From a virus (lineage: Duplodnaviria > Caudoviricetes), in IMG/VR virus record IMGVR_UViG_3300047408_000275, positions 1 through 50,860 of that record: 50,860 nt of DNA; one strand, written 5' to 3'. The first letter of the stretch is position 1; the number at the start of each line of letters is the position of its first letter. The notes under the pieces are model-generated. The model had not been told where the DNA came from. It saw only the letters and a program-made list of their open reading frames with translations, and ran no database searches. The translations under genes were made by a program, and so were the position numbers. Positions 6,618-44,423 of the stretch are shown piece by piece.

Positions 6618-7277
6618 TTATGCTCCTTGCTTAGCAGTCATCTCAGACCTAACTTTATTGACAATAGACCTTGCTTGTGTTTCGTTTAGTTTACATAGGT
6701 CGTCTACTTTGTAGTGCGTTTTCCAGGCATCCACCTTTTCCTTTGGAATTTGATGGATTGCTATCAAATCATTTATTTGTTTCATAAGCAAGTCAATGAC
6801 ATCTATTTCCCTGGGTTGATTTGGATTAAATTTGGCTTTCTGGCTACCATTATTATTTCGTTGTTGAGGAATATCGGCGTCGTCATCTTCTTGTGCCATT
6901 CCTAGAATAGACAATAATCCATAACGTCTTGCATAACTAATATTAAGCCCAACGAATTGGGCTCTATTAAGTGTTTCTTTGCCTTGACTATTTAGCATTA
7001 TATTTCCAGTTGCAAGACGCATTTTTTCAGAGAAAAATTGTCCAGATTTATGCAGAATTATGTTATAAATTTCAACATATTCTCCAGAGCAATCCCCGAT
7101 AAGTTGAGTCACGCCTAAGCCATGCTTAGCCAAAAGTTTTCTAGTGACCTGAAGAACCTGCTCTATTTTTGCATATTTTCCTTTTAACGATTGTGAATCA
7201 CGCTTTACATCTTCAACTTCTCCTTGAAATAGGCTAAAAGCTGCGAATACTTCGTTTGTTTCATTTGACATCTTCAT
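6618..7277 (-). CDS. ERF-family ssDNA annealing protein
   Basis: KYA...[10 protein letters not shown]...HKSGQ...[13 protein letters not shown]...EDDDA signature. Confidence 0.92.
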
Positions 7278-7437
7278 TTTCGTCTCCCCTGTTTAAAAAC
7301 TCTTGACAATTATTACCTACAAACTCTCCACCATCACATACGAGCTGAACATTATATGAATGCGGCTCTATTTCTGGCTCCCCTAATATAAAAGGAAGAT
7401 TAATAGTGGAGATGTTTTCCCAAATCTTATCTGACAC

Positions 7438-7704
7438 TTACTTTCCTCCATAAACCCTTGTATATGCTCTGGAGAAAGCTCTCAAGAAAACTTTGCTCAT
7501 ATCATCCACCTGATAATAGGTCAAATCACCTATCCTATAACACATTTCCTTTCTATCGATTTCTTCTTGCTTCATTAAAAGCATAATCTTAAGAACAAGC
7601 GTATCTGCAAGGAAATCTCGTGTAATATCTGGGAGAGGTTTCGACTCCTGCCAGTTATCGTTGACCCACTCTGAATTTCTACTTTCATCGTTATTTAGCT
7701 TCAT
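7438..7704 (-). CDS. Hypothetical protein, first gene of the leftward early operon
   Basis: 88 aa with AGGAG RBS. Confidence 0.7.
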   Translation of the reverse strand: MKLNNDESRNSEWVNDNWQESKPLPDITRDFLADTLVLKIMLLMKQEEIDRKEMCYRIGDLTYYQVDDMSKVFLRAFSRAYTRVYGGK

Positions 7705-7718
7705 TTTAACTCCTTTTC

Positions 7719-7768
7719 TGTTGACACCTGGCCCTTATAATAGTACGATGTAAACTATCTTGTCAACA
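7719..7768. promoter_or_regulatory. Overlapping divergent sigma70 promoters
   Basis: Plus strand: TTGACA(7721)-17-TACGAT. Minus strand: TTGACA(7766-7761)-18-TATTAT. Together they form the inverted repeat TGTTGACA...TGTCAACA. Confidence 0.75.
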
Positions 7769-7799
7769 CTTTAAAACAAATATTTTAAGAGGGTAGTGA

Positions 7800-7982
7800 A
7801 TGAAAAAAGTAGTAGGAGCCTTATGTGTCCGATTTATTGATGAGGATTTGGAGGCTATAAATAAGGCATCAAGTAAGGTTGGTCTATGGTCTAGTTCATG
7901 GGTTAGAAAAGTTGTTCTACAGTATTTAGAGGGGATGGGAGAGCGAACATCTGATGTTAAGATTGAGGACCGCGTTCGATGA
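7800..7982 (+). CDS. Ribbon-helix-helix (Arc/CopG-like) regulator
   Basis: LCVRF.DEDLEAI..AS...GLWSSSWVRKVV has a strand-helix-helix pattern. It is the first gene after the divergent promoter. Confidence 0.6.
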   Translation: MKKVVGALCVRFIDEDLEAINKASSKVGLWSSSWVRKVVLQYLEGMGERTSDVKIEDRVR

Positions 7983-8149
7983 TTGCAGATCCGAGGGCGA
8001 TTAGAAAAGACAAGGCGTTAGATAGAATGCGCAGAGAACTTCAAGAAATAAATCGGATTAAAAGAAGCCCTGAAGGAAAGAGGGCTTTTATGAGTAGGTG
8101 GCTGGAAGAAAATTTTGGAAAAAAGACAGGAGCAATTAAAGATGAGTGA
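7979..8149 (+). CDS. Hypothetical protein (not in ORF track)
   Basis: 56 aa (MIADPRAIRKDK...) with an ATGA overlap. Confidence 0.5.
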   Translation: MIADPRAIRKDKALDRMRRELQEINRIKRSPEGKRAFMSRWLEENFGKKTGAIKDE

Positions 8150-8318
8150 ATTTAGAAGAGCTGAAGCAGAGATATTTAATATGAAACGATTAATAGATTA
8201 TTCAGATTCTATAGGTCATTTTAAACGAAGAGAACAAAAAAAAGCTTTTGATAAGATGCTAAAGAATGAGGGATATCCAGGATTAAAAGAGTTTAGAGAT
8301 ATGAACATTAATGAGTGA
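8142..8318 (+). CDS. Hypothetical protein
   Basis: AGGAG RBS before the ATG at 8142. Confidence 0.55.
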   Translation: MSEFRRAEAEIFNMKRLIDYSDSIGHFKRREQKKAFDKMLKNEGYPGLKEFRDMNINE

Positions 8319-8532
8319 CGATAAAAAAGAAGTTTATTGGTTTTATCCACACAGCACCAATGAATGCATTGGTTATTTTATATGGAAGATTCCCAAACCA
8401 AAAAAATACAAGAATTATAAGACGAGAAGGAAGGAAGAGAGAGCCGAACAGCGATTTAAATTTGTTCCCAAAGTTGAAGGCTATTCATTTGGAGTAAGGT
8501 TTGCGGATACCTACAGAGGGCCAATTAAATAA
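8311..8532 (+). CDS. Hypothetical basic protein
   Basis: 73 aa, overlapping the upstream stop. Confidence 0.5.
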   Translation: MSDDKKEVYWFYPHSTNECIGYFIWKIPKPKKYKNYKTRRKEERAEQRFKFVPKVEGYSFGVRFADTYRGPIK

Positions 8533-10611: not shown

Positions 10612-11313
10612 ATGAAAAATTTAGCATTGATAGCTATTGCATTGGCATTTCTTTCCGGTTCTGTGCAGTCAAATACCTTGAACAATTATTTAGATTTTTA
10701 CATTGGTGCTGATGGTCAGCTTCGAGTAACGAAATTTAAGAAAGGATTCGGTAATAATTTATTGAAGAAAACATATCCGCAGGGGAATATTTATGCTGGC
10801 GTCATGCTGAGTGAAAATATTGGGGCGGAAGCGGGTTATGAATCGACAACTGAGAGAGCGTGTGATGCTACGTTATGGGATGGTGAGTGTTGCGCAGGAC
10901 GACATGTGCCGCCTGCTGCTGGGGTTGCGACATTTAAAACTAAGTTGCGGATAAAGGGACCACATGTAGGCTTGATTTTATTTCATCCGTTAAAAGATTC
11001 TCGTATTAGTCTTTTGGGGTCTGTAGGCTTAAGTTTTGTTAAGGGCACAGCAGAAATTAAAACAACGAGACTTGGTTTCCCGCCTATTGAAGGCGCTACA
11101 CGCTGCCTTAGCAAGCATAAAGAAGCTTTACGATTTATGGGGGGCGCCCAATATTTAACTCGGAGCGGATTAGGCTTTAGAGGAACCATGAGCTTTATTA
11201 AGACGCGAAAGATAGTGTTAAAGAAAAGCGATGACAATAGCAGCATTCAAATCCCAAGAATTAAGCTAAGAGATAGCGTTGTTTATGGGCTTGGAGCCTT
11301 TTGGGTATTCTAG
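10612..11313 (+). CDS. Outer-membrane beta-barrel protein (OmpA-TM/Ail-Lom-like)
   Basis: Signal peptide, FYIGA and IGAEAGYE strands, and C-terminal VYGLGAFWVF ending in Phe (BAM signal). Confidence 0.85.
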   Translation: MKNLALIAIALAFLSGSVQSNTLNNYLDFYIGADGQLRVTKFKKGFGNNLLKKTYPQGNIYAGVMLSENIGAEAGYESTTERACDATLWDGECCAGRHVPPAAGVATFKTKLRIKGPHVGLILFHPLKDSRISLLGSVGLSFVKGTAEIKTTRLGFPPIEGATRCLSKHKEALRFMGGAQYLTRSGLGFRGTMSFIKTRKIVLKKSDDNSSIQIPRIKLRDSVVYGLGAFWVF

Positions 11314-14567: not shown

Positions 14568-14994
14568 CGACGATATGACTTTTGTCGAAAACGACAAAAA
14601 CCTAAAGCGCGATGACCCATCCGATTGCAAAGATTCTGATGATGCGATGAGCCTGCTAAGAAAGCGCGCTCAAAAGCAAGCAACACAAGAAGTGGCATCA
14701 CTTATGTCTGGCGAGGTTATTGAACTTACGCCAGAGATTCTAGAAGAGCTTGTGGTAAAAGCTCAAGAAACTAGCGATTACTTTAACGGTAAGCTTGACG
14801 ATTTCATGACGCTAGAGCTCGCGACTGCTGCGAGAACGTTGAGGCAGGCTGGCTTTACGTGGCGTGGGATTGCGCAAGAATTCAACGACATGCTTGATGG
14901 CGATTGGGGTAGTAATCAGATTATGGGTATGGAAATTTGCACAGCCGCGGCTAAGTTGTTGGGCGAAGATTCTGATGCGGAGCCTTGGAATTGA
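14560..14994 (+). CDS. Hypothetical protein, paralog of 16881-17210
   Basis: Shared DGDWG..N..MG....AA..L motif. Confidence 0.7.
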   Translation: MTDDDMTFVENDKNLKRDDPSDCKDSDDAMSLLRKRAQKQATQEVASLMSGEVIELTPEILEELVVKAQETSDYFNGKLDDFMTLELATAARTLRQAGFTWRGIAQEFNDMLDGDWGSNQIMGMEICTAAAKLLGEDSDAEPWN

Positions 14995-14995
14995 T

Positions 14996-15457
14996 ATGAG
15001 CAAACCTTTCCTCTTTATTGATACAGAATTTAACGGCTCACCCCTAAACGGGTTTTCCGGACAACTTATTTCAATGGCCATTCTTGATAAATTCAATGAG
15101 TTTTACGAGGTAATAAGGTTGTCAAATGACATACCAATCGACCCGTGGGTAGAGGAAAATGTAATCCCAGTTCTTAACAAGACCCCTATTTCATTCAAAG
15201 AGTTTCAGGGAAAGCTAGAATCTTTTCTAAATAAGTGTTTTTTTCCAGATGGATTTATTATTGTAGCCGACTGGCCAGATGACATTAAGTATTTCTGTGA
15301 TTCCTTGATTACTGATCCTGGGTATATGATTTCTGTGCCGTCCTTTGAGACGCGCGTTATATTAGATATAAACTCTAGTAATTCGAATATACCTCATAAT
15401 GCTCTGGAGGATGCGAAAGCTATTAGGGATTCTTGGTTAACTAAAATTTTAGGATAA
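14996..15457 (+). CDS. DEDDh 3'-5' exonuclease (Rv2179c/RNase AS-like)
   Basis: FIDTEF, LISMA, WV.ENV.P.L, ADWPDD and HNALEDA motifs. Confidence 0.88.
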   Translation: MSKPFLFIDTEFNGSPLNGFSGQLISMAILDKFNEFYEVIRLSNDIPIDPWVEENVIPVLNKTPISFKEFQGKLESFLNKCFFPDGFIIVADWPDDIKYFCDSLITDPGYMISVPSFETRVILDINSSNSNIPHNALEDAKAIRDSWLTKILG

Positions 15458-15604: not shown

Positions 15605-15811
15605 ATGGCAGATGAAAAAATTAGAACAATAACAGCATATGCGCATAAGCCATTCGCGCTATCTTGGCAACTAATAATAAACTCTGTTTTGTATGACCTT
15701 AAAGAAAAATATGGTCGAGAGTTTTCGGCAGATGATAAAGAGGCGGATGATATCTTGAAAGTGCTTTTCGAAAAACATAAACAGTGGTGGGAAAAGGAGC
15801 CTTGGAAATGA
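15605..15811 (+). CDS. Hypothetical protein
   Basis: 68 aa with RBS, coupled to the next gene. Confidence 0.6.
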   Translation: MADEKIRTITAYAHKPFALSWQLIINSVLYDLKEKYGREFSADDKEADDILKVLFEKHKQWWEKEPWK

Positions 15812-16305
15812 GAGAGCTTAAATTTAGAACCTGGTTTGAAGACACCAATGAAGTAACAAAACCATGGACTATATGCGATGTTTCGGAGGGAAAAGATCCG
15901 AACTTTGGGTTCATAAGAAAAGAACCTTTTGGAGCTGGAACAGGAGGAACAGCAGTAGGAGGTATTTATTTAAGTCAGGTTAGAAATCATAGAATAATGC
16001 AATACACCGGACTTAAAGATAAAAACGGCAAGGAGATTTATGAGGGTGATATCCTGTCATGTTTTAGTTCATGGATAACGTGTAATAAAAGTAATAGAAT
16101 TAGAAGGCAAGAATTACAAGCAGGAATTGTTACTTTTAAATTTGGACATTTTAGGATTGAAGACGAAAAAGGATATTGTATCAAAGATATTGATGATGAG
16201 GAAGATTTGCAAATAATTGGTAATATATATCAAACTCCTGAAATTGAAATTGGAAAAATTGATATTTTATCTGAAATTCCTATGGGAAGCTGGGAGAGAT
16301 ATTGA
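15808..16305 (+). CDS. YopX family protein
   Basis: MRELKFR.W, MQYTGLKDKNGKEIYEGDI and IIGNIY motifs. Confidence 0.92.
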   Translation: MRELKFRTWFEDTNEVTKPWTICDVSEGKDPNFGFIRKEPFGAGTGGTAVGGIYLSQVRNHRIMQYTGLKDKNGKEIYEGDILSCFSSWITCNKSNRIRRQELQAGIVTFKFGHFRIEDEKGYCIKDIDDEEDLQIIGNIYQTPEIEIGKIDILSEIPMGSWERY

Positions 16306-16884: not shown

Positions 16885-17210
16885 GGTCTCTGCAAAATGT
16901 AAAATTAATTTTGTTTGGGCACGCACTTGAATTCGTGAACTCAGACGAAAGAGCTCGCCTTATCATTTATCTTCGCATTAATAAAAAAAGAAGTTACGAA
17001 ATTTCTGAGGAATGCCATAGGTTATGGGATGGTGATTGGGGCAATCCCGAATTAAATTATGATATGGGAGAAGCCCTGTACAAAGCCGCTGAAGCGTTTT
17101 TAACAAATGATGTTCCGACTTCGTGGAATCATATAGGGAAAGCTCTCGAAGAGGCAATATACAAGAATGATCAACAAGATGAAAAATGGTGGGAGGGAAT
17201 GCTAAAATGA
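16881..17210 (+). CDS. Hypothetical protein, paralog of 14560-14994
   Basis: DGDWG motif and ATGA coupling. Confidence 0.7.
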   Translation: MRSLQNVKLILFGHALEFVNSDERARLIIYLRINKKRSYEISEECHRLWDGDWGNPELNYDMGEALYKAAEAFLTNDVPTSWNHIGKALEEAIYKNDQQDEKWWEGMLK

Positions 17211-18202
17211 CTAGAAAGCTCGCTTCAATACGTATGATAGGGTCAATCTCTCCAATTGAAGGTGCTGACAATATAGAACTTGCTCATGTTGATGGCTGGC
17301 AATGTGTTGTTAAGAAAGGCGAGTTCATCGCGGGACAGCTTTGTGTTTATTTTGAGATAGACTCATTTTTGCCTATCCGACCAGAAAAGGAAGGGTTTAG
17401 GCTTCGGACGATTAAGCTGAGGGGGAAGATATCTCAGGGGTTAGCGATTCCTTTTCATTCTTTCCCCGGTATTGAATGTGATAAGGCTGACATTCTTGGA
17501 AGTGATGTTACAGAGCTTCTTGGAGTCTTAAAATACGATCCGCCTATCCCAGCTCAGCTTGCGGGAATCTGCAAAGGGAATTTCCCTTCTTTCATTAGAA
17601 AGATAGACCAAGAGCACGTGCAGAACCTATGGCATAAAATTAAAGATTGTGAAGAGCATTTTGAAGTTACGATTAAACTTGATGGGTCAAGTTGTACCTA
17701 TTACCTTAACGATGGAATATTTGGCGTATGCTCTCGAAACTTGGAGCTTAAAGAAGATGAGAATAATACCTTCTGGAAGATAGCTAAAAGGCACGATATT
17801 GAGTCTATTTTGAGAAATTACGGTAAAAATATAGCATTACAGGGAGAGGTCATAGGTGAAGGTATTCAAGGTAACCCGGAGAAGATAAAAGGTCAGGAAT
17901 TCTATTTGTTTGATATATGGGATATTGATAGGCAACAATATTTAGATCCGGAAGAACGAGCAGTATTGTGGAGCAAATGTCTTAAAGACAGAGGAGTTTG
18001 TTGGTGTCCGTATGCTGAAGAGTTTAAGATGCTTGCGCCAAGATTGTCTCAATTTAAAGACATTAATGAGCTTCTTGATGCTGCAAATGGAAAGTCATTG
18101 AATTCTGGAATGCGAGAAGGAATTGTTTTTAAGTCTATGGAAATTGGCTCCGGCTTAAGATTTAAGGTTATATCTAATGAGTATCTTTTAAAAGGATATT
18201 AA
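17207..18202 (+). CDS. ATP-dependent RNA ligase, DRB0094/Rnl5 family
   Basis: N-terminal RKLASI...IEGADNIE OB domain, then motifs KLDGSS, CSRN, QGE, LFDI, EGIVFK and FKVIS. Confidence 0.93.
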   Translation: MTRKLASIRMIGSISPIEGADNIELAHVDGWQCVVKKGEFIAGQLCVYFEIDSFLPIRPEKEGFRLRTIKLRGKISQGLAIPFHSFPGIECDKADILGSDVTELLGVLKYDPPIPAQLAGICKGNFPSFIRKIDQEHVQNLWHKIKDCEEHFEVTIKLDGSSCTYYLNDGIFGVCSRNLELKEDENNTFWKIAKRHDIESILRNYGKNIALQGEVIGEGIQGNPEKIKGQEFYLFDIWDIDRQQYLDPEERAVLWSKCLKDRGVCWCPYAEEFKMLAPRLSQFKDINELLDAANGKSLNSGMREGIVFKSMEIGSGLRFKVISNEYLLKGY

Positions 18203-19633: not shown

Positions 19634-20131
19634 ATGGTCGCTTACATGAGCGATAATAGAAATCTAAGGATGTTGGAATTATTTCTTTCTCGGAAAGATG
19701 GAGCCCCAGAAGACGAATATCGTAAATGTCTTGCAGAATTTGAGGATATGATAAGAAAGCATGGATATTATAAGCTTGTGTGTAATTTCGATGTATCACA
19801 ATCTCTGACTGAGCCACCGATGTCACCTACGCCAATGCCAGTCATAAAATTATATCCAATTGAAAAAGACCGCGAGTCATTTTCTTTTAAATATATAAAA
19901 ATAACAGAGGAGGTTCTCTCAGATGATGATATTGAACAAAAACGTCAAGAATTTGAAAAACTTGATAAGATAAAATGTTCAGAGGATTTGGCTATGGCTA
20001 AGAAAATTACTTGCGATAGAAGAATTGAAGGTCGTGGACATTATTTCAAATATGAAAACCGCTATGAAAGCCACCAGGATTGTTGCGCATTCTGTGGAAA
20101 ATATGTGTGCGATATTATAAATGAATCTTGA
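19634..20131 (+). CDS. Hypothetical protein with C-terminal Cys/His motif
   Basis: 165 aa ORF overlapping the next gene. Confidence 0.65.
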   Translation: MVAYMSDNRNLRMLELFLSRKDGAPEDEYRKCLAEFEDMIRKHGYYKLVCNFDVSQSLTEPPMSPTPMPVIKLYPIEKDRESFSFKYIKITEEVLSDDDIEQKRQEFEKLDKIKCSEDLAMAKKITCDRRIEGRGHYFKYENRYESHQDCCAFCGKYVCDIINES

Positions 20132-20849
20132 GCCAGAAGACTTAAAAATAGACATATTCGGCTACGGCCTTCCATCAGGAGAAAGCTATTATAGGGTAAC
20201 TCATATACCTACTGGGAAGATAGGCTGCTGCGACCAGCATTGTATTCGTCATTTTGAAATGAAAGACATATCAGACTCAGATAGAAAAGAATGTGCAATC
20301 CAAAGGTTGTTTAGTTTACTTAGAAACCAGCATGAATCTTATAAATCTGTTGCTCATGATATCTGCAATCATATGGCGGAGCGCGATATCGAGGATATCG
20401 GCATAAATGACGCCATAAATCAATATATCGAACATTATGATAATGCGTGGGAATACTTCAAAACAAACAATAAATTTAATCACCCTATAATTCCAAAATT
20501 CTTGCTTTCTAGAGAAATCGTGGAGCGCTTCCATGGAGAGGCGGCAGCAAGAAAAGCTTTCGATGATTGGGTGTATGAGTTTAAGAATAGAAAGCCATCG
20601 AGTATAGAAGAGAAAAATCTTTCGCATCATGAGGACAAGATTCCATTAAAGAACCTTCTTAAGAATTGTGGCCTGGTGAGCAGTACGTCAGAAGCATTGC
20701 GAATGATAAAACAAAATGGTGTTAAGATAGATGATATTATAGCATCAGAAGATGTTCCTATAGCGGCTGACAATGTATATAGGGTTTTCCAGGTCGGTAA
20801 AAAACGTTTTTTAAAGGTAAGAGCGTCAAATAGCAAGGGGTTTGCGTGA
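20121..20849 (+). CDS. Fusion: degenerate RF-1-like domain plus TyrRS C-terminal helical/S4 domain
   Basis: N-terminus EDLKID....RVTHIPTG. C-terminus REIVERFHG..AA...GLVSSTSEALRMIKQNGVKID...FQVGKKRF. Confidence 0.8.
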   Translation: MNLEPEDLKIDIFGYGLPSGESYYRVTHIPTGKIGCCDQHCIRHFEMKDISDSDRKECAIQRLFSLLRNQHESYKSVAHDICNHMAERDIEDIGINDAINQYIEHYDNAWEYFKTNNKFNHPIIPKFLLSREIVERFHGEAAARKAFDDWVYEFKNRKPSSIEEKNLSHHEDKIPLKNLLKNCGLVSSTSEALRMIKQNGVKIDDIIASEDVPIAADNVYRVFQVGKKRFLKVRASNSKGFA

Positions 20850-22986: not shown

Positions 22987-23062
22987 TCCCCCTTAGCTCA
23001 GCTGGTAGAGCACGCGGTTGTTACCCACTAGGTCGGTGGTTCGAGTCCATCAGGGGGAGCCA
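22987..23062 (+). tRNA. tRNA-Asn(GTT) with encoded CCA and a mismatched anticodon stem
   Basis: TCCCCCT/AGGGGGA acceptor, GCTC/GAGC D arm, GGTGG-TTCGAGT-CCATC T arm, G73 and CCA. Anticodon loop TTGTTAC. Confidence 0.9.
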
Positions 23063-30078: not shown

Positions 30079-30318
30079 ATGTTAGAAAAGTTTATTGAAA
30101 ACTTATTAATGAAGAGCCGGATAGAACAGGAAGTGTATGCAAAACATATACTTCCTGGGAATCTGTCGGACTTGGAGTACAAGTTTACCTGTGGAAAGCT
30201 GAAAGGATTGCAACAAGCTGATGATTTGGTTCGGTCGCTCTATAACGCGATGGTGAATCAAGTTAGATTCAGTGATATCAAGGAGAGATTAATAGATGAC
30301 GAACCGGAGCGCTACTAG
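30079..30318 (+). CDS. Conserved head-module hypothetical protein
   Basis: G...D..YK...G...GL pattern, located before GroES. Confidence 0.7.
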   Translation: MLEKFIENLLMKSRIEQEVYAKHILPGNLSDLEYKFTCGKLKGLQQADDLVRSLYNAMVNQVRFSDIKERLIDDEPERY

Positions 30319-30748
30319 TCTTATTGAAGACTGTGAAGAGCAAGAAGCGAAGGAATGTGTTGAAAAGCATTTGGGGTTTTCTCCATTTTCTGCTTTTAGC
30401 AAACAAATCGCCGTAAAGATTTATGTTAGGCCTGACGAACTTTGTACATTCACAACAGATGAAGGAAAAGTTGTCAGCCTATATCTGCCGCCTACCATTT
30501 CTGCGAGTGATAAATTTAGAAACTGCACAGCATTAGTAATTGATGTGGCAAAAGATTGCTATATCGGAGATGAATATCAGGAATCTGGACCGTACTGCAA
30601 AGTCGGTGACTGGATAATGATGCCAAGGAACGTTGGAACACAAATCAACTATAGAGGAATTCCGATACAGATTATACCGGAAGACTCCTTCTATTGTGTG
30701 ATTGAAGATCCAACGCATATAGAGCGGTTATACAAAGGGAGAAAGTAA
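30296..30748 (+). CDS. GroES-like co-chaperonin 1
   Basis: LYLP mobile-loop region, A.V..V..DCY, PYCKVGDW...R..G, I..ED....VI.DP. Confidence 0.8.
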   Translation: MTNRSATSLIEDCEEQEAKECVEKHLGFSPFSAFSKQIAVKIYVRPDELCTFTTDEGKVVSLYLPPTISASDKFRNCTALVIDVAKDCYIGDEYQESGPYCKVGDWIMMPRNVGTQINYRGIPIQIIPEDSFYCVIEDPTHIERLYKGRK

Positions 30749-31288
30749 ATGGAAGTTAAAGACTGTGTCATAAGCCCCATTATTACATCTGATGGTTTGA
30801 ATATCATCAGAGAAAATATAAAAAAGGTTGATTTAAATAGCGTAGTTGAGGGAAGTATTGAAAAAGAAACCAACATAACGATTGCAGCTTTAGAAAAGAA
30901 TGCTTTGCAAAAAAAATATGATGAAATGCCAAGGTCGGAATGGACTTTTGAAAATCAGCATGGTTTTGCACCGTTGAGAGCAGTTGGTGCTTATATCGCA
31001 GTTCAAATATACACACCGATAAAATCTGATGTGTTAATTATGGCAGACTCTGTTAAGGCGATGCAAAAATGGACTAGTAATGTTGGCCGAATATTTTCTA
31101 TTGGGAGTGCTTGTTATAAGGGCGACAGATTCAAAGATTGGGATGAGCTCCCAGAAATTGGTGATTGGGTTGTTTTTAAGGTAAATGCCGGGCCTGTTTT
31201 CAAGTATCGTGGCATTGATGTCGCCATCATGTTTGATGATTCTGTGAATGGAATAACCGAAGACCCATCTTACGTTTCCAGAGATTAA
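30749..31288 (+). CDS. GroES-like co-chaperonin 2
   Basis: PLRAVG..I.V, VG.I..IG..CY, P.IGDWV.F...AG, DD.V.G...DP. Confidence 0.8.
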   Translation: MEVKDCVISPIITSDGLNIIRENIKKVDLNSVVEGSIEKETNITIAALEKNALQKKYDEMPRSEWTFENQHGFAPLRAVGAYIAVQIYTPIKSDVLIMADSVKAMQKWTSNVGRIFSIGSACYKGDRFKDWDELPEIGDWVVFKVNAGPVFKYRGIDVAIMFDDSVNGITEDPSYVSRD

Positions 31289-36526: not shown

Positions 36527-37579
36527 ATGTCAACATCAGGCACGTATAATTTTGGTTCTCCTCAGAATGTTGAGATTATAACAGACGCTTACGAGCGTAC
36601 TGGCGTCTTGCCTGACTTTATTACTCAGCAAAAAATCTACACTGCCTTACGTTCCATTAACTTCATATTGCAATCTTGGGTAAATAAAGGCCTAAATCTA
36701 TTCACTGTCAAGCAAGGGATGATATCTCTTAATAATGGCCAAACAGCTTATACGCTTCCAAATCATGGCATTGATATTCTTGAGGCTACGGTTAGAACCT
36801 CTTCCAGAAACTTAGGTGGAACGCCTGCCTCTGCTCCTGGCGGTATAGCTGGAAATGCGTTTGACGGAAATCCATTAACTGCCTGTACGCAAACGGGCCC
36901 AAATGGAAATATCTCCTATAACTGGGGCACTGGAAACTTTGCAATTTCTATGCTTGGCATTACATCATTTGCAACCAATGATTACACGTTGTCGGCTCAG
37001 TTTTCATTCGATGGCATTACGTGGACAACCTGTCTAACAATACCGACACAAACGTACGTTCAGAATCAGCTAACCTGGTTTGTCATTCCAGTTCCTGTTC
37101 CTGCAAGCAATTTTAGAATTCTGGAAACCGGTGGTGCTACCTTAAATATCAATGAGCTGTATTTCAATACAAACATCAATGACACGATTATTAACCGTGC
37201 ATCACGAAGTGAATACATAGCATTTCCAAATAAGACACAGACAGGGAGACCCTCAAGCTTTTGGGTAGACCGTCAGATTAATCCTGTTGTTTATATATAT
37301 CTGACGCCAGATGGCACATATAACAACCTGTTTTATACGTATACGCAGCAGATACAAGATATCGGCGCCCTAGTAGATACGGCAGGAATTCCAGCGCGAT
37401 TCTTGGAAGCATTAACAGCTGAATTAGCATTTAGGCTATCCATTAAGGAAGGAAAGCTCGATGTTGCTCAGACGTTGGCCGCACTTTCTGCGCAAGCGTA
37501 TTCCGAAGCCGCGATGGAAGATAGAGAGCGTGTACCGCTTAGGATTTATGGCGATTACATGCAGGGATGGACGCAATGA
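36527..37579 (+). CDS. Head-tail adaptor with inserted discoidin-like domain
   Basis: TSGTYNF, RS.N.....W.N.GLNL, SR.EY...PNK...GRP and P.RF..AL...LA motifs, with an AFDGN..T...S.DG.TW insert. Confidence 0.7.
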   Translation: MSTSGTYNFGSPQNVEIITDAYERTGVLPDFITQQKIYTALRSINFILQSWVNKGLNLFTVKQGMISLNNGQTAYTLPNHGIDILEATVRTSSRNLGGTPASAPGGIAGNAFDGNPLTACTQTGPNGNISYNWGTGNFAISMLGITSFATNDYTLSAQFSFDGITWTTCLTIPTQTYVQNQLTWFVIPVPVPASNFRILETGGATLNINELYFNTNINDTIINRASRSEYIAFPNKTQTGRPSSFWVDRQINPVVYIYLTPDGTYNNLFYTYTQQIQDIGALVDTAGIPARFLEALTAELAFRLSIKEGKLDVAQTLAALSAQAYSEAAMEDRERVPLRIYGDYMQGWTQ

Positions 37580-40747: not shown

Positions 40748-41392
40748 ATGGTAATGACGTACACAAGTCTCGTTAATCAAGTGATAAGCTATCTCGATAG
40801 AGAAGGCGATGTTGCTACGTCTGAACAAATACCAAATTTCATCTATCAAGCGCAACAACGTTTAGCATTAGCATGCAAAACAATAGGCCTTGAATCATAC
40901 GTCGTAGGCGTATTTATACCTGGACAATCTGTTTATCAAAAGCCCGCAAATTGGCGACGTAACATCAGCATGAATGTCGGTTCAGGTGCGGGATTCAATA
41001 CACGTAATCCCGTCTTGCTCAGAACCTATGAATTCTTGCGTAGTTATACGCCAAATTCGGCCGATGTAACAAAGCGCGCGTTACCACAATTCTATTCAGA
41101 TTACGGGTTTTCCAACTATCTGGTAGCGCCAACTCCTGACCAAGCATATCCCTATGAGTATGCTTTTTTGAAGCTACCAGACCCTGTTACCGATATAAAC
41201 CAAACGAATTGGTGGACGAACTTTGCGCCACAAGTTTTATTAAACGCAACACTTCTAGAGGCAATGTATTTCTTGAAAGACGATGACCGTATTCAAGTTT
41301 ACAAAGCCGCTACAGATGAAGGGATACAACTTATCAACACCCAAGACGATATGAGAATCGTCGACAGGTCAAGTGCGAGGCAGTCTGACTAA
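40748..41392 (+). CDS. Second adaptor / tail tubular-like protein
   Basis: MTY.SL...V..YL.R......IP.FI..A..R, APTPD..Y and NW....AP..LL..TL.EA..FLK motifs. Confidence 0.7.
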   Translation: MVMTYTSLVNQVISYLDREGDVATSEQIPNFIYQAQQRLALACKTIGLESYVVGVFIPGQSVYQKPANWRRNISMNVGSGAGFNTRNPVLLRTYEFLRSYTPNSADVTKRALPQFYSDYGFSNYLVAPTPDQAYPYEYAFLKLPDPVTDINQTNWWTNFAPQVLLNATLLEAMYFLKDDDRIQVYKAATDEGIQLINTQDDMRIVDRSSARQSD

Positions 41393-42915
41393 TGGCTACT
41401 CCAGATAACATTTTTCCTCTTGCATGTCAGCCCGGAGTTCAGCGGGATGGAACGACTTTCGATTCACCAAACTATATCGATAGTAAATGGTGCAGATGGT
41501 ATCGCGGAAAACCACAAAAAATTGGCGGTTATAACAAAATGTTTAACTGGCCAACTAATGTTCCACGTGGAGTATTTGTTGTTCCTCAGACACCTTTGTT
41601 TAATATCTATGTTGGCGATTCTGACAGTCTTAAGTATTTTCCTGCTGATAATGCCACGGGATTAGCAGTTGGCCCTGCTGTTGATAGAACTCCTGCGTCG
41701 TTGACACCAAGCACTTTTAACACTTGGATTTTTGATGTCATGTATTCGACGGTAGATAACTCGGGAATTCTTATAGCAATGGCAACTCAGAATTTATACT
41801 CTATCGACCAAACGGTGGAATCTCCTATATTTTATGGTGATATAAATGCAAATACGCCATTAATAGAGACGGGATTTTATACCAGTGGTGGATTTGTTGT
41901 ATTGCATCCATTCCTGTTTTTATTTGGAAATGATGGAAATGTGACTTGGACAAATAGTAACGATCCAACCACAAAATTAGGCGATGCGAGAATCACAGGA
42001 AGTAAGGTTTTAACTGGTCTTCCTACACGGGGTGGAAATTTTTCTCCAGCTGGACTTCTCTGGAGCTTGGACAGCGTCATTCGTGTAACACAAGTGGGAA
42101 CCGATAGTATTGAGTTTAAATTCGATACGGTTACGTCGGAAAGCTCTCTTTTATCGAGCGCCGGTATCATTGAATATGATGGTAACTATTACTGGGCAGG
42201 TGTAGACAGATTCCTTTGGTACAACGGTGTGGTACAAGAGCTTCCAAACTCAATGTCATTACAGTATTTCTTTGATAACTTAAATTATTCTCAACGACAA
42301 AAAGTCTGGGCAACAAAATATACGAAATACGGTGAGGTATGGTGGCATTATCCTTCTGGAACCAATACCGAATGTGATAAAGCAATTATCTACAACGTCA
42401 GAGAGAATGTTTGGTATGACACATTAAGCGCACGTAGTTCTGGATATTTTGACCAAACATTTACAAGACCTATATGGGCAGACAATGTCGCAAATGCCGG
42501 AAATTATACAATTTGGAGGCATGAAATCGGTGTTGACCAAGTTGTTGATGATGTGCATACGGCTATTCAATCTAATTTTGAAATGAGTGTGATGGCATGG
42601 GTTGCAAATGGGCCTGGTGGTCAAAATAGCGCGACAGATAAAACCGTATATGCCTATCGATTTGAGCCAGATTTTGTGCAAACCGGCAATTTAACGCTCG
42701 TTGTTAAAGGAAGAGAATATGCAAATTCCATCGTAGAAGAATCTACGGGCTATATATTTAATAGTGATCCATTTTCCCCAGATTTTAAATTAAAAATAGA
42801 TTTGCGAGAACAGAGAAGATTAATGACGTTGCGATTTGATAGCAATGTCATCGGTGGATATTACCAGATGGGCAAGTGTTTATTAGTTCCAAGAATGGGA
42901 GATACAAGGCCATGA
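41392..42915 (+). CDS. Tail nozzle / head-closure protein (podovirus type)
   Basis: PG.QRDGT, W.R...G.P.KIGG, F..Y.G.V..LP, EVWW.YP...ECD....YN..E..WY. Confidence 0.75.
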   Translation: MATPDNIFPLACQPGVQRDGTTFDSPNYIDSKWCRWYRGKPQKIGGYNKMFNWPTNVPRGVFVVPQTPLFNIYVGDSDSLKYFPADNATGLAVGPAVDRTPASLTPSTFNTWIFDVMYSTVDNSGILIAMATQNLYSIDQTVESPIFYGDINANTPLIETGFYTSGGFVVLHPFLFLFGNDGNVTWTNSNDPTTKLGDARITGSKVLTGLPTRGGNFSPAGLLWSLDSVIRVTQVGTDSIEFKFDTVTSESSLLSSAGIIEYDGNYYWAGVDRFLWYNGVVQELPNSMSLQYFFDNLNYSQRQKVWATKYTKYGEVWWHYPSGTNTECDKAIIYNVRENVWYDTLSARSSGYFDQTFTRPIWADNVANAGNYTIWRHEIGVDQVVDDVHTAIQSNFEMSVMAWVANGPGGQNSATDKTVYAYRFEPDFVQTGNLTLVVKGREYANSIVEESTGYIFNSDPFSPDFKLKIDLREQRRLMTLRFDSNVIGGYYQMGKCLLVPRMGDTRP

Positions 42916-43145
42916 TAATACCAACAAAAGATATATCGTTAAATGCCTTAATCGGCTCAATGGTAATCGATTTTCCAAAAGATAATATCCCGTTATCAGG
43001 AAACGAAGAAAATTGGAAAGACTGGGCGAGCGCTCTATTGCTAGAGAGTTCGTTTCAAAATCTTGGAGCACCAGACCCAAACGCGTTTAAAGATAGAACC
43101 GCATGGGCGCAGGCGTTTTTTCACTCAGTGGCGTCAATTAGTTAG
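42912..43145 (+). CDS. Hypothetical tail-module protein
   Basis: W.DWA..L......PDP..F..W..WA-like pattern and ATGA coupling. Confidence 0.7.
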   Translation: MIIPTKDISLNALIGSMVIDFPKDNIPLSGNEENWKDWASALLLESSFQNLGAPDPNAFKDRTAWAQAFFHSVASIS

Positions 43146-43154
43146 GAGACAATT

Positions 43155-44423
43155 ATGTTCAGTAGTTTATTAGGTGCATTAGGTGGTCCATTAATCAGCG
43201 GTTTAATGGGCGGTGGAGGCGGCGGTGGTAGTAGCGGTGGTAGCTCTGGCGGCGGTTTGGCTGGCGGCCTGAGTAATGCGCTAGGCGGAATATTTAAAAC
43301 CTTTGCGCCATTAGCTGGAACAGCCGGTACGGCACTGGGGACATATTTTGGTGGTCCATTAGGTGGAATGCTGGGCGGAAGTTTAGGAAACGCTGTAGGG
43401 AATATGTTTGGTGGTGGTCAACAAGGACAGCAACAAGGTCAACAACAAGGTCAACAACAAGGTCAACAACAAGGCCAGCAGCAATATGGACCCCAGCAAT
43501 CCTATGGAAATCAAATGGGTACATCCATGGGCAATGCTATGAACCAAGGATTTAATCAATTCATTCCGCAACAATTGCAGGGTCAGACATTTGGCAATAT
43601 GGGAGGCGCCCTAGGCGGCTATCTCGGAAGCCAATTCGGACATCCCAATGCAGGCCGCGCGATTGGAGAAATGGTAAATCCATATATTCAGAGATATATG
43701 CCACAAGACATGCGAGAGCAACAAATGGGTAACTTTGGTGGCTACTTAGGCCAACAAGCCGGCCAACGATTTGATCAAGGAATGCAAAGTCGAGGGTTTA
43801 ACCCTTCAATGGGTGGGGGATATGGCGGCGGCTACGGTGGTGGCCAACAGTCCTATGGACCACCTGGCGGCGCTTCCTTTGGCGGCGAACAAGAGCAATA
43901 TGGCAACATTCCTGAAGCACCTCCATTCGGAGGAGGTGGACAAGAATATGGCAATATTCCCGAAGCCCCCCCATTTGGCGGTGGTGGATATGGCGGTGGA
44001 AACCAATATCCTCAACAAACGCCTTCTAGGCAAAACTTATTGAGCGATATTAGAAACTATCGAAGGCCTGGATCATCTCAGGGAAATTCCAGATCCGAGC
44101 AAGGCGGTTATGGCAACATTCCTGAAGCACCTGCATTTACACCGCCTACCATGGGCTCTTCAGGGATAAGAAGTGGTGCTCATATTGGCCTACGTTCTTC
44201 GACACATCCTGGAAGTTCTGGGAATATATTTGACGAGATAAGGAGCAGAGGTGGCCAGGGTCGTATGGGATTACGTCCTACGCAAACGCGAGCGAGCAGT
44301 GCATATCCCAGAGACGAAACGAATGATTTTATGGGTCGTATGATGGCTCAAAGAAGAGGCTCTATTGAACCATCCGATTACCAATATCAATCTGGTGGAA
44401 AGCCTTACGGCGGAGGATTCTAA
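43155..44423 (+). CDS. Gly/Gln-rich internal virion protein with Pro-rich repeats and WH2/central-like segments
   Basis: Glycine-zipper N-terminus, three copies of YGNIPEAP, SRQNLLSDIR, GNIFDEIRSRGGQGRMGLRPT and MMAQRRGSIEPSD. Confidence 0.75.
   Translation: MFSSLLGALGGPLISGLMGGGGGGGSSGGSSGGGLAGGLSNALGGIFKTFAPLAGTAGTALGTYFGGPLGGMLGGSLGNAVGNMFGGGQQGQQQGQQQGQQQGQQQGQQQYGPQQSYGNQMGTSMGNAMNQGFNQFIPQQLQGQTFGNMGGALGGYLGSQFGHPNAGRAIGEMVNPYIQRYMPQDMREQQMGNFGGYLGQQAGQRFDQGMQSRGFNPSMGGGYGGGYGGGQQSYGPPGGASFGGEQEQYGNIPEAPPFGGGGQEYGNIPEAPPFGGGGYGGGNQYPQQTPSRQNLLSDIRNYRRPGSSQGNSRSEQGGYGNIPEAPAFTPPTMGSSGIRSGAHIGLRSSTHPGSSGNIFDEIRSRGGQGRMGLRPTQTRASSAYPRDETNDFMGRMMAQRRGSIEPSDYQYQSGGKPYGGGF

Follow-up and report, generated by a model that had tools for sequence, protein, structure and literature searches.

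The gene at positions 43155..44423 (plus strand) of the IMG/VR virus record IMGVR_UViG_3300047408_000275 probably codes for a virion-internal (ejection) protein with a disordered tail that docks a partner, in a podovirus of Gram-negative type. The window analysed here is the whole record, 50,860 bases of DNA that make up a complete podovirus genome, with an exact direct terminal repeat of 127 bases (1-127 = 50734-50860). An earlier note, made from the letters of the DNA, had read the 422-residue product (the target protein in what follows) as a virion-module protein with the proline-rich, WH2 and central (C) regions of WASP/WASH-like proteins, and had proposed that the phage may infect a eukaryote-associated bacterium and carry an actin-binding factor in its virion or supply one to its host.

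The placement of the target protein in a virion module is borne out by the neighbourhood of its gene. The gene is the sole long frame at its locus, with a Shine-Dalgarno sequence (AGGAG, 43144..43148) 6 nt ahead of its ATG, and lies on the same strand as the genes for the adaptor, the tail spike, the nozzle and a homologue of phrog_4287 'DNA ejection protein'. It is preceded by the genes for an SU10-type adaptor (40748..41392, E 1.2e-23) and a nozzle-like virion protein (41392..42915; phrog_3287, 43% identity to gp067 of Caulobacter phage GB2A) and by a conserved open reading frame (ORF) of 89 residues (42876..43145) that matches no PHROG or NCBIfam family. A gap of 3 nt separates its stop codon from the ATG of the next gene (44427..45569), which encodes a second glycine-zipper protein with a C-terminal domain homologous to GB2A gp065 (E 5e-11). 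The phrog_4287 homologue (45574..46422, E 3.9e-09) comes next, each of these genes being on the plus strand, and three further large ORFs lie downstream of it. The order adaptor, nozzle, small ORF, target gene, next gene and ejection homologue recurs unchanged in each of the six related viral contigs with a homologue (L003-L008), the small upstream ORF included. A block that follows the tail genes and keeps its gene order is the arrangement of podophage ejection proteins, suggesting that the target protein resides in the virion. In five of the contigs the counterparts of the target protein share 36-52% identity with it, compared with 55-75% for the nozzle, so that it evolves faster than its neighbours, as disordered proteins do; the sixth contig, L008, in which the homologue is split into overlapping frames (7080-7736 and 7687-8481) through a frameshift or an assembly error, was left out of this comparison. 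In phage SU10, five ejection proteins (gp20-24) are reported in the virion and as absent after genome release (PMC9509320), and the ejection proteins of Pa223 are described as mapped by operon position together with virion mass spectrometry, one of them being a gp14-like membrane protein (bioRxiv 10.1101/2025.06.11.659172).

The target protein is rich in Gly, Gln, Ser and Pro (110 Gly residues or 26%, 52 Gln or 12%; Tyr makes up 5%), contains two Lys and two Val residues, and lacks Cys and Trp altogether. An AlphaFold2 (AF2) model built with a 19-sequence alignment has a mean predicted local distance difference test (pLDDT) score of 57, and the sole confidently folded part is a small helical domain (residues 118-212, 43506..43790, pLDDT 78-94) with an invariant FGHPN. 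Ahead of this domain lie a Gly-rich N-terminus (residues 1-88, 43155..43418) with the glycine-zipper-like stretch LGTYFGGPLGGMLGGSLG, modelled as a helix of moderate confidence at residues 38-85 (pLDDT 64-70), and a (QQQG)n tract encoded by a 12-nt tandem repeat (43419..43490, five overlapping 24-nt copies). The glycine-zipper Pfam profiles PF13441, PF13488 and PF05433 do not match the target protein itself; its homologues score 9-16 bits against cut-offs of 24-29, and below threshold they match the Pfam families Gly-zipper_YMGG, Gly-zipper_Omp, Rick_17kDa_Anti and MccV. Disorder is predicted for the C-terminal half: residues 222-422 form a low-confidence tail, save for three short helices at 294-300, 358-366 and 392-403, which coincide with the three motifs picked out in the earlier note.

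The motifs of this tail, all in frame at the positions given for them before (43899, 43947, 44109, 44025, 44220 and 44322), fall into two classes. The first is a proline motif in three copies, YGNIPEAPPF at 43899..43928 (Y249) and 43947..43976 (Y265) and YGNIPEAPAF at 44109..44138 (Y319). A degenerate DNA pattern for YGNIPEAP has exactly three matches in the window, at these starts, and none in any of 100 shuffles (mean 0.00), so the repetition is far beyond chance. Copies 1 and 2 differ at five bases in the 30-nt core, all of them synonymous, indicating that selection acts on the peptide. The second class comprises the helices: H1, SRQNLLSDIRNYRRP (from S291, 44025..44069), where the Pfam WH2 profile matches with its N-terminal half; the H2 unit, GNIFDEIRSRGGQGRMGLRPTQTR (from G356, 44220..44291), in which the helix is followed by GLRP(T/A); and H3 with the adjoining tail, NDFMGRMMAQRRGSIEPSDY (from N390, 44322..44381), a 'C-like' helix with an acidic and an aromatic residue behind it.

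Across the family, conservation forms islands on these tail motifs. Just three columns of the 19-sequence alignment are invariant, E361, L373 and R374, all within the H2 unit, and P272, P326, R365, G372 and R379 are conserved at 90% or more; in the family alignment A1, R292, L296, I299 and R300 of H1 are invariant. The H2 unit follows the pattern hydrophobic pair, any residue, Glu, hydrophobic, two residues, Arg, then some 5-6 residues and (M/F)GLRP(T/A)xTR, and judged from these alignments the H2 helix with the following GLRP(T/A) is the most conserved element of the family. Expressed as descriptive patterns, which were composed after the data had been seen, E-x3-[RK]-x5-8-[GIVT]L[RK] occurs in 21 of the 22 family sequences, GLR[PS][TASV] in 17, P[EQKAM]AP in 16, R..[LM][LM]..IR in 14 and RR..[IVL] in 10; the last reads MMAQRRGSI in the window and is replaced elsewhere, at the same place, by MMDLLRNRL or LMxEIRNY. 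The earlier note had named loss of the LLxxIR, LRPT and RR motifs among homologues as grounds for giving up its proposal, and on this point it survives.

The family to which these sequences belong appears to be a separate one, mostly disordered and known from uncultured phages, in which the conserved part consists of short linear motifs probably under peptide-level selection. It is not yet represented in Pfam, PHROGs or NCBIfam: the target protein matches no Pfam family above cut-off, no PHROG and no NCBIfam family. A word-indexed search with residues 230-422 retrieved five homologues, and a full profile search of 1.84 billion representatives returned 163 proteins at E ≤ 0.001, of which 23 pass at E ≤ 1e-10 and eight at E ≤ 1e-30, most of the weak matches among the 163 covering the glycine-zipper stretch alone (profile positions ~25-100). 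The homologues number about 20, every one of them from uncultured phages. No full-length relative was found in 185,579 species genomes, where all 22 loci recovered match just glycine-zipper residues 17-104; 12 of these loci were inspected, and the bacterial or tail proteins found there are unrelated. Among 273 candidates, none was a longer fused form of the tail at E ≤ 1, the distant members P0037 and P0022 found nothing in viral contigs when used as queries, and an alignment of distant members (A6) found nothing in metagenome contigs. A DNA pattern for the motifs gave three loci, none of which is a family member, and the sole motif-bearing ORF recovered (L040) is an unrelated protein. Many of the wider relatives end in YA.GG.V, an ending also seen by eye in tape-measure-like proteins and in the product of the neighbouring gene.

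Two further groups of proteins came up in the course of these searches. Four distant profile matches (P0018, P0020, P0057 and P0078) carry 4-6 tandem copies of a unit of ~60-70 residues (...APQGF.GD.LGA.GG.VGG.IGGRFGNAG.GQ.IG...LPF.AGP) and form a repeat family related to the helical domain of the target protein. L013-L015, L017, L019, L020, L023, L029, L031, L032 and L034 belong to one bacterial protein family (Hymenobacter, Nitrosomonas, Variovorax and others) with an acidic N-terminus, the same GT(Y/F)FGGP.GG zipper, ELEG.S.EDQEFE and a C-terminal G(R/K)W.R(R/K)G..I.L.

We hypothesise that the target protein is packaged in the head and expelled via the tail ahead of the DNA, and that its glycine-rich, mostly unfolded chain would be suited to passing a narrow channel. 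Its N-terminal glycine zipper and the helical domain (118-212) would associate with the envelope or with other ejection proteins, and the disordered C-terminal tail of ~200 residues would act as a multivalent docking line: a partner protein would be bound by the three proline motifs together with the three short helices, of which one has the invariant GLRP(T/A). Several observations weigh against this reading. It is gene position that suggests the virion location, and homology to characterised ejection proteins was found neither in PHROGs nor in NCBIfam nor by tblastn among 50,697 phage records, which gave no match to the target protein; it also lacks a counterpart in GB2A, which among cultured relatives is the closest by nozzle identity. 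Fold comparisons of the AF2 model yielded no BFVD match at E ≤ 0.001 and a best Z of 4.7, none reaching 5, in a wide Protein Data Bank (PDB) search, a missing match that does not exclude membership among the ejection proteins. The N-terminal segment does not qualify as a classical transmembrane helix (top Kyte-Doolittle mean over 19 residues 1.36, under the usual 1.6), and the tail helices are not unusually amphipathic, with hydrophobic moments of 0.35 (H1), 0.38 and 0.09 compared with a 95th percentile of 0.52 for 11-mers of the target protein.

The same fold comparisons returned a few rows for the baculovirus capsid protein P78/83 in BFVD, at the level of noise (E 1.6-2.5, TM ~0.1). In the ESM Atlas, residues 240-422 gave no usable feature match and structure matches at TM of at most 0.31, among them a 'spire' cluster at a TM of 0.23 that is not meaningful.

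It is conceivable, if rather unlikely, that the target protein does not cross the envelope at all and instead works inside the particle, as an assembly or packing component in which the Gly/Gln/Tyr low-complexity sequence forms a gel-like core with DNA or scaffold and the motifs bind the phage portal, capsid or other ejection proteins. The composition of the chain (26% Gly, 12% Gln, 5% Tyr), its Arg-rich motifs and an R:K ratio of 16:1 in the tail resemble prion-like low-complexity domains, and the gene order shared with the neighbours in six of six contigs would suit phage-internal partners. In P22-like phages, ejection proteins are described as having a loose association with the barrel of the portal (bioRxiv 10.1101/2025.06.11.659172), which also accords with an internal role. 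The net charge of the tail is, however, only about +2, weak for DNA condensation, and the number and type of the motifs vary among relatives while the neighbouring genes are conserved, a pattern that fits an external (host) partner better.

A host partner could also be sought among the bacterial relatives of actin, although this seems improbable to us. According to this explanation the helices would dock into a bacterial actin-fold protein (MreB, FtsA, ParM or DnaK), at its hydrophobic groove or its substrate site, anchoring or pulling the ejection complex and the DNA at the inner membrane, and the WH2 likeness would be a convergence on the same kind of groove. The hydrophobic groove of actin is described as a 'hot spot' that is used in prokaryotes as well, with ParR binding ParM and arcadin-2 binding crenactin (PMC5173319). 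Ejection would presumably place the tail in or near the bacterial cytoplasm, and repeated motifs fit avidity for a polymer. Against this stand the weakly amphipathic character of the helices and a literature search on WH2 and MreB, in which none of the papers listed reports in title or abstract that a WH2-like peptide binds MreB.

The actin reading of the earlier note starts from a likeness that can be traced in the profile scores. No Pfam family other than WH2 (PF02205, curated cut-off 23.1 bits) matches, and WH2 does so in 11 of 21 family proteins (six of six in the first set, five of nine new proteins and none of six in the third set). Both halves of the profile are covered, the LLxxIR helix taking up positions 2-14 and the GLRP stretches of P0037 and P0001, which are the best match there, positions 14-28 and 15-28. 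The best score in the family, 21.1 bits for P0014 (E 2.5e-4), comes near the cut-off; the target protein scores 15.1 bits (E 0.019), and a six-frame search of the window finds one place (44019-44057, 10.9 bits). None of the 21 proteins reaches 23.1 bits, however, so the WH2 profile match looked for in the earlier note is wanting, and seven motif-bearing members (P0011, P0012, P0013, P0016, P0022, P0024 and P0075) show no WH2 match of any kind. Of 14 control prokaryote genomes, 8 likewise yield sub-threshold matches (E ≤ 10). Many WH2-actin entries exist in the PDB, and sequence searches of its chains with the target protein, the family profile A1 and the H2-unit profile A4 each found none at E ≤ 10. 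The matching members are relatives of one another, so that their repeated matches are not independent, and the finding was picked by eye from a very large scan; a motif likeness this strong is expected by chance when many windows are read in this way. The WH2 likeness, although real, is therefore within reach of chance.

A closer comparison of the motifs with WH2 domains and with class I nucleation-promoting factors (NPFs) leads to a mixed picture. The LLxxI(R)-type helix of WH2 is present in H1, both as a pattern and as the AF2 helix 294-300 at low pLDDT. The LKK(T/V) motif is missing: H1 is followed by NYRRP, as the earlier note had recognised, and the LRPT of H2 stands 10 residues past the helix, a spacing that is conserved in the family and lies beyond the ~4-7 residues typical of WH2 domains, to which the WASH type is an exception. 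The GG-containing linker thought to be WASH-like is not conserved, most homologues having ASQPG in its place, and Lys is nearly absent from the target protein (2 of 422 residues). The order proline-rich, WH2, C characterises the family as a whole, and some relatives show it more completely; in the window protein the proline motif is PEAPP and not the polyproline expected of a class I NPF for binding SH3 domains or profilin. Likewise, the acidic segment with Trp is absent, as had been noted, from the window protein, which ends ...IEPSDYQYQSGGKPYGGGF without Trp, but an acidic stretch ending in Trp follows the last RR-containing helix in four of the 22 sequences (P0012, P0019, P0013 and L003).

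Judged by their sequences, the distant members are more striking than the window protein in their NPF-like motifs. PP.LPPR occurs in four of the 22 (P0016, P0022, P0037 and P0075), P0016 and P0037 having 3-4 PPPLPPR repeats where the target protein has YGNIPEAPPF, and two or three tandem helix-x10-(G/I/V)LR.(T/A) units are found in P0011, P0016, P0022 and P0037, with looser versions of the helix-GLR unit in P0024 and P0075. A layout of tandem units is shared by tandem-WH2 effectors such as VopL/VopF. With PPPLPPR repeats, tandem helix-GLRP units or an acidic-Trp stretch added by homologues, the likeness to NPFs is wider than the earlier note had seen. Precedents for phage proteins aimed at eukaryotes are reported for phage WO (PMC5062602) and for the ankyrin protein of a symbiont phage (bioRxiv 10.1101/608950), and among the papers listed on WH2, bacteriophage and actin none describes, by title or abstract, a WH2-like motif in a phage virion protein.

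The clues to the host offer no tie to a eukaryote-associated bacterium. Identity to the nearest cultured relatives, which infect Caulobacter, Roseobacter, Pelagibacter and cyanobacteria, is 27-43%: the nozzle is 43% identical to that of Caulobacter phage GB2A, the portal 34% to that of Pelagibacter phage HTVC023P and the terminase 39% to that of Roseobacter phage CRP-901. The relatives with known hosts infect free-living Gram-negative bacteria; searches with the spike and the terminase gave distant matches with mixed hosts. No other eukaryote-like domain turned up among the 48 window ORFs scanned. The single sequencing run found to contain the stretch is labelled soil metagenome, with no RNA run listed, and since it may be the phage's own source it is not independent evidence. 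In a true NPF mimic, the proline motifs, the WH2-like and C-like helices and, in some homologues, the acidic-Trp stretch would bind G-actin and perhaps Arp2/3, with the glycine zipper possibly anchoring the protein in the envelope of the infected bacterium and leaving the tail exposed; an ejected internal protein ends, however, in the bacterial envelope or cytoplasm and not in the eukaryotic cytosol. That the motif array of the family engages the actin, perhaps with Arp2/3, of a protist or animal cell harbouring or carrying the bacterial host seems very improbable to us.

Actin itself was encountered elsewhere in the searches, in four giant-virus contigs (L035-L038) that each encode an intact actin of 379-383 residues; in the PDB, the copy from L036 finds the major actin of Dictyostelium (E 7.7e-199).

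The remainder of the genome can be described briefly. The virion block runs on the plus strand in the order terminase (start 23115), portal (start 26581), capsid (start 33677), an adaptor-like gene with an SU10 adaptor domain (36527-37579, E 4.4e-07), tail spike (start 38459) and the SU10-type adaptor already mentioned; the two genes with SU10 adaptor domains flank the tail spike gene, and both are kept in the six related contigs. Between portal and capsid, two adjacent ORFs (30296-30748 and 30749-31288) both match phrog_3188 'co-chaperonin GroES' (E 2.1e-07 and 5e-05). The gene that follows the target gene (44427-45569) has its glycine zipper at the start and an internally duplicated C-terminal domain, residues 243-301 (E 8e-09) and 317-379 (E 5e-11) each matching residues 492-575 of GB2A gp065, a protein with a tape measure annotation; gp065 was considered as a homologue of the target protein and rejected (E 7.5), its match being to this next gene. 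Another protein of the ejection block (46426-47760) also has proline-rich (PPVPPMPPPAIAP) and Gln-rich low-complexity stretches, so that proline tracts are not special to the target protein. ORF 48993-50858, which is open-ended, appears to be continued by the 5'-open ORF 3-407, and the last gene of the ejection block thus spans the ends of the record. Upstream of the virion block are an early-region ORF (10612-11313) that comes near the threshold for the outer-membrane beta-barrel domain PF13505 (26.4 compared with 28.7 bits), a hint of a Gram-negative host, an RNase H (phrog_2259, 14864-15457), YopX (15784-16305), an RNA ligase with a PHA02142 OB domain (17186-18202), a protein whose S4 domain resembles the C-terminus of tyrosyl-tRNA synthetase (20121-20849) and tRNA-Asn(GTT) (22987-23062).

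Of all the parts of short-tailed phages, the ejection proteins are understood least; most of the known ones are helical. Compared with those of T7 (gp14/15/16), P22 (gp7/16/20), SU10 (gp20-24) and Pa223 (gp53/54/56), the block described here is alike in lying just downstream of the tail genes, in comprising several proteins, presumably in having at least one member with membrane-active segments, and in a sequence that is poorly conserved while the gene order is kept. The target protein differs from them in showing no detectable homology, in being mostly disordered instead of helical and in having a tail that is an array of conserved short motifs. Its peptides of 15-25 residues with the invariant E361, L373 and R374 provide a handle for finding the first host contact on phage entry.

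What that contact would mean depends on the partner. The complexes of ParR with ParM and of arcadin-2 with crenactin are similar in that the groove occupied by WH2 on actin is engaged there by a short helix or peptide (PMC5173319), and if the partner were actin or a bacterial actin-fold protein, this would be a new kind of phage-host or phage-eukaryote contact; on the actin reading, the target protein would be the first component of a phage virion to be directed at actin. With WH2 proteins and class I NPFs the target protein shares the R..LL..IR helix, a helix followed by L-basic-x-T, the upstream proline motifs and the C-terminal RR helix, and with four homologues included also the acidic-Trp stretch, the order and tandem layout being alike. 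It is set apart from them by Pfam scores below the cut-off, the long spacer before LRPT, Arg in place of Lys, the lack of polyproline and acidic Trp in the window protein and the location in a phage ejection block with an N-terminal glycine zipper. Bacterial tandem-WH2 effectors and baculovirus P78/83 belong to the same set of comparisons.

If the partner is not actin-like, the family would still show that ejection proteins can work via disordered motif arrays, as the translocation domains of colicins do. These domains are intrinsically unstructured and glycine-rich and carry short binding epitopes through a narrow passage in the outer membrane, to catch partners beyond it. The likeness, a disordered glycine-rich chain with short conserved epitopes, is one of working principle: the sequences are unrelated, inspection by eye revealed no TolB or TonB box in the target protein, and the target protein would be delivered by a virion, unlike a secreted toxin.

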